Virus record (IMG/VR): IMGVR_UViG_3300020331_000002
Source of the DNA: a virus
Taxonomy: Duplodnaviria > Caudoviricetes
DNA length: 64,000 nt
Direction: 5' to 3' (one strand)
In this document: piece after piece, positions 62,231 through 63,363 of the stretch
Position numbering within the stretch: position 1 is the stretch's first letter
How the letters are laid out: each line of letters begins with the position of its first letter
Notes under the pieces: generated by a model
The model's input: the letters and a program-made list of their open reading frames with translations, nothing else
Told to the model about the DNA's origin: nothing
Database searches by the model: none
Made by a program: the position numbers and the translations under genes

Positions 62231-63363
62231 CCGTTGGAATTGCTTACGAGCATGGTTAGTACTAGAGGTTAAATTGTCAACGCTACAATCCCTAGTGATG
62301 ATGGATTCCAACGTTAAAAGGCAGCACAGACTTTACACAATACTGACGGCGTGAACGGGTACTAAAGACACCCAAAAACGTGACAAGATTATTAATCAGT
62401 GTGTAAGGTAATGGCAAACTGTGTGGGCCTTTAGTGAGATAGGCACCTCGGTTCTGTTAAGCTTTACACTCGTGTTTAACGGAATATTGGTTGGAGAAGC
62501 CAACCCGCATTGAAGACGGCATTGAAGAATGCACCGTTTGGATGAGCTTGCGAGTGCCCCGGGCGAATGGGTAACATAGTGGGTGTTTCGTCCGGTGATA
62601 TGACTTATATGGTCAGGTTCCATCGTGCTTGAGTACTACATTACATAGTAAGAAAGAGAGTATAAAACGAACTACCATAACGGACAAGGCCTCAATAACC
62701 TTGGTTTGTATAGTGAAATTAGACGAGCTTAGAACTTAGATAGCTAATAAGGCTATGAGTAACTATGCAATTTACAGAGATTGGAATACCGGATATAAGT
62801 TAGAGGTAAGAGAGGGACTTGTGGTGTTTTTTAACATGCACTAAGATGTCAACTGTCCGTGAGGGCGGTTTCCCGCACTGTATAAAGAAATTTCTACAGT
62901 GTATGACCCCTTGAAGGTCTGCTTATAGAACTTAAGTAGAACTCAGTGATGGCCTCGCAAGGTAGTTATTACCCTAGTTAGTAATCTTGACGGGTAATCA
63001 CAACGCCTTGGATGTACCACAAAAGGATATCGCTCTGCAAGAAAAAGAGTTCATCATCCGCAACCTTACGGACGCACGTATATGACGCCAAGTCAACGTA
63101 GCAAATGATGAACGGCAACGATAGCTGCTTAATGGCAACCACGTTGGTCATTAGGCAGTCGCAATACTTGAAACAATACGACATGGGCTTAGACAGAGGG
63201 CTAAGCAGGCGAATTACAAAATGTAGCCTATAAGCAAGTCGAAACCATAGTATATCACTTCTTTAGTTTATTCTAATCCATTACTTTTGTTAAGAAACTA
63301 TGCGCTTCCGCCGCAGGGTAATGTGAAAAGGACCTGCTCGAAATTGAGATGTAGTGATCTCAA
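62231..63363 (+). ncRNA. Candidate large (~1.1 kb) multi-domain structured non-coding RNA
   Basis: No credible ORF; more than 20 helices found by eye, including nested and long-range pairs, with G-U wobbles that work only on the plus strand and a UACG-capped stem. Confidence 0.65.

Follow-up and report, generated by a model that had tools for sequence, protein, structure and literature searches.

A stretch of 64,000 nucleotides (nt) from IMG/VR virus record IMGVR_UViG_3300020331_000002 (Duplodnaviria; Caudoviricetes), referred to here as the window, ends in a long region without recognizable genes, located between a small nuclease gene and a convergent baseplate-hub gene. With a likelihood of roughly three in four, this region is the gene for a large (~1.1-1.4 kilobases, kb) folded non-coding RNA (ncRNA), a divergent and enlarged member of an uncatalogued family of jumbo phage RNAs, of which the copy in the window would be the largest known version. 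The RNA gene would span positions 62232 to ~63400-63610 on the plus strand, with a stable and highly folded product; fold, strand and transcript ends are predicted for this phage. The original prediction, made from the sequence alone, placed a very large plus-strand structured ncRNA, absent from catalogues, at 62231-63363. This core reading is borne out by strain conservation, discrete contigs in RNA libraries, two family elements and the lack of a match in Rfam 15. The suggestion of an undescribed, larger class holds in that the RNA is uncatalogued, but the RNA appears not to stand alone: it would be an enlarged and highly divergent representative of a family that is widespread and itself uncatalogued.

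Two contigs from near-identical strains, L003 and L004, were aligned to the window. There are no differences in 62221-62750, five in 62750-63250, seven in 63250-63500, where divergence begins to rise in the 3′ part of the conserved block, and 17 substitutions plus a 12-nt indel in 63500-63750. The segment 62221-63250 thus displays five differences per ~1030 nt from the sister strain. The upstream nuclease gene has 6-9 differences per 250 nt (2.4-3.6%), and the downstream hub and structural genes have 15-60 per 250 nt (6-24%). An additional strain, in run X19, diverges by ~0.6% across the RNA region vs ~4% in the coding flanks. Thus the sequence from 62221 to ~63400 is the most constrained of its neighbourhood.

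The stretch is present in six marine metatranscriptomic runs from three studies, and four of these runs were compared across 12 kb around the locus, using assembled contigs. In run X14 a single 1,445-nt contig spans 62169-63613, and no contig covers the hub gene, the 4 kb that follow it or the greater part of the nuclease gene. Run X16 yielded one contig of 1,312 nt (62254-63565) and hardly any other assembled sequence across the 12 kb. In X17 most of the region is covered, with deeper pieces across 62145-62777. The contigs pass the predicted end at 63363 and reach ~63565-63613. These contig ends coincide with the onset of tandem AT-rich 13-mers (GTAAAAAATTAAA) that are indel-polymorphic between strains, and therefore may be assembly breaks and not 3′ ends of the RNA. 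The tandem GTAAAAAATTAAA units are found at 63613-63650, and the sister strain represented by L003 and L004 has one extra 12-nt unit.

Could such contigs come from read-through, or from contaminating DNA, over a non-functional spacer or a decayed gene whose helices arose by chance? Stem counts and folding z-scores at or near chance, together with the lack of covariation for this lineage, are what a spacer would show. However, the stretch is four- to forty-fold more conserved than the neighbouring genes in two strain comparisons and carries two family-specific elements in the right order and on the right strand, and the RNA-library contigs are restricted to it; contamination would not pick out this stretch alone in two runs. 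A spacer or decayed gene is therefore disfavoured and appears extremely unlikely.

The coding capacity of the locus was assayed in several ways. No open reading frame (ORF) of at least 80 amino acids (aa) is present in 62221-64420, a gap of 2,200 nt that is the largest in the genome, the runner-up being 1,158 nt. Thus the gene-free stretch exceeds both the predicted end at 63363 and the end of the window. With TAG or TGA read as sense, no ORF of at least 100 aa is opened in the gap (nothing longer than 99 codons). A Pfam search with the small ORFs of the gap gave sub-threshold noise only, with no family above the cut-off, and tblastn with proteins that occupy part of this gap in relatives detected no remnant in the gap of the window. 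A decayed gene was rejected on these three grounds, and the prediction of no credible gene after 62220 is thereby confirmed. The accompanying remark about gaps of less than 250 nt elsewhere is approximately correct in the window, but the largest other stretches there without an ORF of at least 80 aa measure 351 and 438 nt. Elsewhere in the same genome, further stretches without such ORFs are found at C1:19677-20834 (1,158 nt), C1:42462-43187 (726 nt) and C1:49346-50021 (676 nt), and these could be sites of other RNA genes.

The family to which the RNA is assigned was found through the flanking genes. Homologues of the nuclease, with 41-63% identity, occur in contigs where the gene order is the same and the ORF-poor gap measures 750-1,200 nt, and in L005, L008, L009 and L011 they precede a related RNA. 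In group A (L005, L008 and L011), the gaps align with 62% identity and show invariant blocks between indel-rich stretches, the signature of a structured RNA. Among 80 extra loci gathered via the hub protein, a larger group B emerged, in which an RNA of ~400-450 nt begins a few nt past the stop codon of a 142-aa SegE-type GIY-YIG gene. Overall, the family RNA in relatives is ~400-750 nt long and is situated after the small nuclease gene and before the baseplate-hub gene.

Covariation in these relatives is extensive. When 11 members are aligned with plain MAFFT, RNAalifold predicts 92 pairs, and compensatory double changes are seen at 38 of these. For 31 diverse members, aligned by means of the model, the paired fraction of cells is 88.8%, vs 67% in shuffled alignments and ~40% with slid partners; double changes are present in 36 of 42 pairs, and none of 500 shuffles reaches the observed values. 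It should be noted that the 31-member alignment is biased towards the model; the effect is large, however, and the independent MAFFT result agrees. A narrow covariance model of the mid-domain (R1) finds the RNA in 40 of 91 sources. Rfam 15 has no family that matches in 19 related loci, and no such RNA is named in the literature searched. The 3′ domain of group B (alignment A8, e.g., L036:7412-7518, minus strand) contains the direct repeat C(A/G)GAT(A/G)A(T/A)G twice, at a distance of ~55 nt. Where the repeat varies, the two copies agree with each other in nearly all 11 sequences, which represents concerted evolution and not complementary covariation, and suggests a shared partner or an alternative pairing register.

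Membership of the RNA from the window was assessed by position and by models built from the relatives. The upstream PDDEXK_15 nuclease gene ends at 62220 and the hub gene is convergent, the same order as in L005-L012 and in most R1-positive loci. An nhmmer search with a profile of the group A core gives one match in the 310-kb genome, at 63005-63050 in the gap, on the plus strand. A descriptor of the signature hairpin of the family (AAANGRU, 2-7 nt, GCHHUG, 1-4 nt, GAAAMAG) also matches once in both strands of the 310-kb genome, at 63022, and in none of 30 random genomes. The flank and loop correspond to 63022-63047, and the loop, GCUCUG-CAA-GAAAAAG, is of the subtype displayed by PA5oct, L005 and L023. 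Downstream of the signature hairpin, both the window and PA5oct have a hairpin with the arms UGCUUAAU and UUAGGCA.

The second element is the 5′ domain of the family. Covariance model R2, which represents this domain and hairpin and was built from relatives without the window, has its top match in the whole window (both strands) at 62486-62573 on the plus strand, with 13.5 bits; the next match has 7.8 bits. The expectation value (E) is 0.0026 in 2 kb and 0.084 in 64 kb, a modest score. Both hairpins are recovered in the match, as are the CCCAUUGAGG-type block (CGCAUUGAAG in the window) and the junction helix; this helix is CGCA/UGCG in the window vs CCCA/UGGG in the family, i.e., a compensatory change. 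The two elements are separated by ~450 nt in the window, as compared with ~45 nt in group B and ~270 nt in group A. This wide spacing, with ~250 nt of additional stem loops at the 5′ side, leads to the reading of a strongly diverged, expanded family member. The homology that underlies membership, as judged from these motifs, is real but thin.

A number of results weigh against this assignment or against a folded RNA as such. The R2 score is only modest, and the usual inner stem of 4-6 base pairs (bp) of the signature hairpin is not evident in the window, where closure is possible by GGAU/AUCC only. Model R1, which contains the GGGGGUACCGG..ACCGCCUCC element, has no hit in the genome at E<=10; its best score in the 2-kb region, 7.3 bits, falls at a non-homologous place. 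Similarly, the GGGGGUACCGG..CCGCCUCC element of the family has no detectable match in the RNA of the window, and an nhmmer profile of 31 members (A5) misses the locus. Model R3 (the 3′ domain, with paired CUCRGAU/AUCURGA arms and a UUCACCG hairpin) has its best match near the locus at 63911-63985, which at 10.7 bits and E 9 is non-significant. A promoter and terminator scan of the window yields matches at chance level, and none was identified. The RNA-library contigs do not provide strand, ends or level, and they may contain DNA carry-over. In the collections searched, only near-identical strains represent this lineage, and covariation comes from relatives, not from the window's own helices. 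Thus the covariation looked for downstream of homologous nuclease genes is present in the relatives' family, but for the helices of the window only near-identical strains could be compared.

The weak R3 match falls within a segment, 63897-63985, that displays a strong hairpin (GGCTTGCCC-ATATC-GGGCGAGCC) followed by AATCTTCTAACCTTGGAATGTCTGT, with a weak likeness to the start of the family 3′ domain. If the resemblance were real, the RNA would reach ~64000; conservation and contigs argue against this.

Thermodynamic tests also fail to support the assignment, as they do not separate the region from coding DNA. The whole region has minimum free energy z-scores of -2.83 (plus strand) and -1.81 (minus strand), but two coding controls of equal length give -2.60 and +0.55; the better-than-shuffled folding that had been put forward as a check is thus seen, yet it is uninformative. 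Sliding 200-nt folding z-scores over the region are mildly negative. Local stems of at least 8 bp number 10, vs 6.3 +/- 2.4 in dinucleotide shuffles, and six of 60 shuffles reach 10, so that the stem count is at chance. Folding statistics alone are no demonstration of function; support for function comes from strain conservation, expression and homology. Outside of the region, strongly negative 200-nt z-scores (-3.1 to -3.95, on both strands) are found at 60700-60899 and 61200-61399.

The helices themselves can be graded by the partition function. The nine arm pairs to which the original prediction had assigned coordinates are all found exactly at these positions, and the other arms named lie within 62231-63363. 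Pair probabilities of 0.8-0.99 are obtained for 62232/62313, 62317/62432 with inner stems, 62559/62595, 62968/62998, 63125/63158, 63187/63206 and 63344/63363. The long-range helices 62670/62967 and 62680/62860, as well as TGTATAGT/ACTATGCA (62707/62769) and the helix 63049/63113, have pair probabilities of at most 0.12. Thus the long-range part of the proposed fold is unsupported in this model.

Strand assignment rests on G-U asymmetry in the relatives and on a few strain variants, and not on stranded reads. In the relatives there are many near-invariant G-U pairs, thus the transcribed strand is the counterpart of the plus strand of the window. The few changes between strains (62763 C>U, 63108 A>G, 63141 A>G, 63254 A>G) are for the most part transitions that leave a predicted pair intact, as G-U, on the plus strand or affect unpaired sites. 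These variants are suggestive of a plus-strand RNA, although the number is too small for a test.

Conservation could alternatively be explained at the DNA level, by a replication origin or by a packaging or recombination site, with transcription incidental or serving as an R-loop primer. The T4 origins oriF and oriG are a precedent for R-loop priming. The locus is the largest non-coding region of the genome, beside gp46/gp47-type recombination genes and at a convergent strand switch, and an AT-rich tail with tandem 13-mers comes after it, all of which would suit such an element. On the other hand, the compensatory changes and conserved G-U pairs of the relatives would be mismatches on the other strand and meaningless in duplex DNA, the conserved block is distinct from the fast-evolving AT-rich repeat tract, and the GC skew shows no inflection at the locus. 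A DNA element is thus very unlikely, and an RNA gene is the better description of the conserved block.

The relationship of this RNA gene to the nuclease gene upstream requires consideration. In 28 of 34 RNA-positive loci a small nuclease gene on the same strand comes first, and the RNA starts no more than tens of nt from its stop codon. The gene just upstream (e.g., L089:8769-9194, L074:7756-8271) encodes a SegE-type GIY-YIG protein of 140-145 aa in 22 loci, a PDDEXK_15 protein in six and an unrelated protein of unknown family in six. It looks as if small nuclease genes of unrelated folds had been swapped in front of one RNA. This tight arrangement behind two unrelated nuclease folds would be expected if the RNA were not autonomous, that is, if it formed a structured 3′ part of the nuclease transcript, with a role in stabilization or regulation in cis, or were dedicated to the nuclease, binding it as scaffold or specificity subunit. 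The lack of a separate promoter in the window, and the X14 and X17 contigs that begin 50-85 nt inside the nuclease gene, point in the same direction. However, the contigs leave out most of the nuclease coding sequence, and thus the RNA would accumulate separately from the nuclease mRNA. Moreover, the gene directly before the RNA is unrelated in six loci, PA5oct has a consensus promoter of its own with the resolvase gene on the other strand, and RaK2 retains an endonuclease gene beside a mere 365-nt gap. The adjacency may be plain synteny; judged from gene order, the position of the RNA next to nuclease genes is probably mainly the conserved synteny of a resolvase slot. A non-autonomous RNA is thus unlikely. 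It is also quite unlikely, but should be considered, that the RNA and the minimal nuclease upstream (SegE-type GIY-YIG or PD-(D/E)xK, without a DNA-binding tail) form one unit in which the RNA is a scaffold or specificity subunit of a structure-specific nuclease in recombination or packaging. If true, this would be an RNA-dependent DNA nuclease of an undescribed kind, with its largest known RNA component in this phage.

For an autonomous RNA gene, the following scheme can be proposed. Transcription would be co-directional with the nuclease gene, with the RNA starting at the nuclease stop codon or shortly before or after it. Jumbo phages related to RaK2 and PA5oct would have kept the family at one locus, after a SegE-type GIY-YIG or PDDEXK_15 gene and before the convergent hub gene, and would have retained a core in which a hairpin presenting the GCUCUG..GAAAAAG loop is combined with a 5′ three-way junction that carries the CCCAUUGAGG-type block. 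In the lineage of the window, ~250 nt would have been gained at the 5′ end and ~430 nt inserted internally. As to function, we can only guess: the RNA may act in trans during infection as a structural RNA or RNA-protein scaffold, as proposed for GOLLD and ROOL, with the invariant A-rich loop as a partner contact, a tentative idea that is drawn from analogy and is rather doubtful. A search for antisense targets of the hairpin loop within the genome gave only 11-12-mers at chance level.

Large ornate RNAs are uncommon, and what they do is one of the open questions in RNA biology. The family described here looks widespread (40 of 91 related sequences, with a narrow model), is absent from Rfam and from the literature searched, has a fixed position in the genomes of a large clade of T4-related jumbo phages, and is present in ocean RNA libraries. 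The copy in the window indicates that a family member can expand past 1 kb, and it distinguishes core from dispensable parts. A version is present in PA5oct, a cultured and genetically tractable phage of Pseudomonas aeruginosa, so that deletion, pull-down and structure work are possible. Annotation pipelines currently populate such loci with tiny hypothetical ORFs.

Several parts can be distinguished along the plus strand of the stretch. A 5′ extension at 62232-62432 consists of two stable stem-loop domains: domain 1 (62232-62313) is closed by a 9-bp helix, and domain 2 (62317-62432) is a long irregular hairpin. No counterpart of the extension was detected in the RNAs of relatives. Pair probabilities here are 0.82-0.99, there are no differences from L003 and L004, and the segment is within the X14 and X16 contigs. 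The family 5′ domain (62486-62573) has the hairpin GGUUGG/CCAACC, the block CGCAUUGAAG and the hairpin ACGG..CCGU; the junction helix, from the R2 match, pairs CGCA at 62506-09 with UGCG at 62549-52. This domain falls within a three-hairpin junction that had been predicted at 62442-62558. The hairpin CCGGGCGAA/UUCGUCCGG at 62559-62595 has one G-U pair, a probability of 0.91 and no strain differences. A lineage-specific insertion of ~430 nt (62596-63021) separates the two family elements; it includes the hairpin 62968-62998 and has three strain differences. The family signature hairpin follows at 63022-63059, with the flank AAAGGAU, the loop GCUCUG-CAA-GAAAAAG and the possible GGAU/AUCC closure. 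In the hairpin CUGCUUAAUG/CAUUAGGCAG at 63125-63158 (probability 0.99), the variant 63141 A>G retains an inner pair as G-U. The 3′ part of the conserved block (63187-63363) contains hairpins at 63187-63206 (0.96) and 63344-63363 (0.84). From 63364 to 64000, and past the window to ~64250, there is an AT-rich, faster-evolving tail, which includes the weak R3 match.

The window corresponds to the minus strand of G000:C1:214684-278683, in a virus record of 310,672 bp with direct terminal repeats, and the RNA is single-copy in this 310-kb genome. The runs that contain the sequence are marine metagenomes. Neighbouring genes identify the phage as one of the T4-related jumbo phages around RaK2, GAP32 and PA5oct. 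A gene for a gp46-like AAA_23 protein is found at 58028-59818, upstream of the nuclease gene. The nuclease gene itself (61705-62220, plus strand) encodes a 171-aa PD-(D/E)xK protein of Pfam PDDEXK_15 (PF24608; E 4e-23), in agreement with its description as Hjc-like. The baseplate-hub gene (gp26-like, Pfam T4_baseplate) is on the opposite strand at 64421-65305, past the end of the window and convergent, and large structural genes come after it. The best tblastn matches of the hub gene are in PA5oct, Atu_ph07, GAP32, CBB and RaK2. A search with the nuclease protein among 5.8 billion proteins shows identity dropping straight from 99% to 60%, with no intermediates. Motif scans of viral and metagenome contigs revealed only copies from the same lineage, known relatives and coding false positives of the D-x-A-L-x-E-K-D type. 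ARAGORN detects no tRNA or tmRNA genes, and blastn of the stretch against GenBank phages gives no match.

The named phages differ among themselves at this locus. In the homologous gap of PA5oct (L018:6905-7916, minus strand, corresponding to NC_071039.1 ~75,834-76,809), a perfect TTGACA-17-TATAAT promoter with an extended -10 (TG) is present on the relevant strand, and these promoter hexamers have been reported for that phage (PMC7318152). Downstream of the promoter are ~975 nt that include the family hairpin and only ORFs of 39-50 codons, followed by a GC hairpin and a short T tail; thus versions of ~1 kb exist elsewhere. The four hypothetical coding sequences (CDSs) of 39-50 codons annotated there (gp338-gp341) may be artefacts of annotating an ncRNA locus. 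A RusA or EndoVII gene adjoins the gap on the opposite strand in PA5oct, GAP32 and XaC1, and in RaK2 the endonuclease gene is kept and the gap is just 365 nt. GAP32 (L020:6056-6859) and XaC1 (L022:6981-7772) have a different conserved non-coding element on the minus strand of these loci, with 68% identity over 389 nt and invariant blocks that include AAACCTGATCCTATCGAAAA and CACGGCAAT.CGGCACTATAAAGA. This element has no detectable similarity to groups A and B, and blastn with the RNA of the window gives only a 21-nt match to XaC1, i.e., no detectable relation. Model R1 has no match in the whole records of PA5oct, GAP32, RaK2, XaC1 and one further jumbo phage.

The RNA may be compared with three sets of known or related RNAs. 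PA5oct ncRNA001-004, found by RNA-seq (Lood et al. 2020, PMC7318152), are likewise ORF-free transcribed regions of a related jumbo phage; however, none of the four is at the homologous locus (~75.8-76.8 kb of NC_071039.1), which is annotated with the hypothetical CDSs. With the family at the nuclease/hub locus (groups A and B: L005, L008, L011, L009, L036, L073, L088, L096 and others, and the ~1-kb form of PA5oct), the RNA of the window shares locus and strand, the signature hairpin with its AAANGAU flank and GCUCUG..GAAAAAG loop, the 5′ junction domain with the CCCAUUGAGG-type block, and absence from Rfam. It differs in being two to three times longer (1.1-1.4 kb vs 400-750 nt), in its ~250-nt 5′ extension and ~430-nt insertion, and in having no detectable GGGGGUACCGG..CCGCCUCC element or 3′ domain.

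Among catalogued RNAs, cmscan with Rfam 15 finds no match at gathering thresholds anywhere in the window, and relaxing the cut-off to E<=10 brings up nothing relevant from 61600 to 64000 and beyond. GOLLD, ROOL, OLE, HEARO, raiA, group I and II introns, RNase P, tmRNA and 6S RNA were considered and rejected, as none of their covariance models matched; the earlier impression that the RNA is neither GOLLD nor ROOL is therefore correct. GOLLD (RF01998) and ROOL (RF03087) are nevertheless the nearest known kind, being very large, intricately folded, phage-borne and non-coding. The RNA of the window differs from them in having no cmscan match to either and no neighbouring tRNA genes, in belonging to a marine T4-related jumbo phage, and possibly in being longer.

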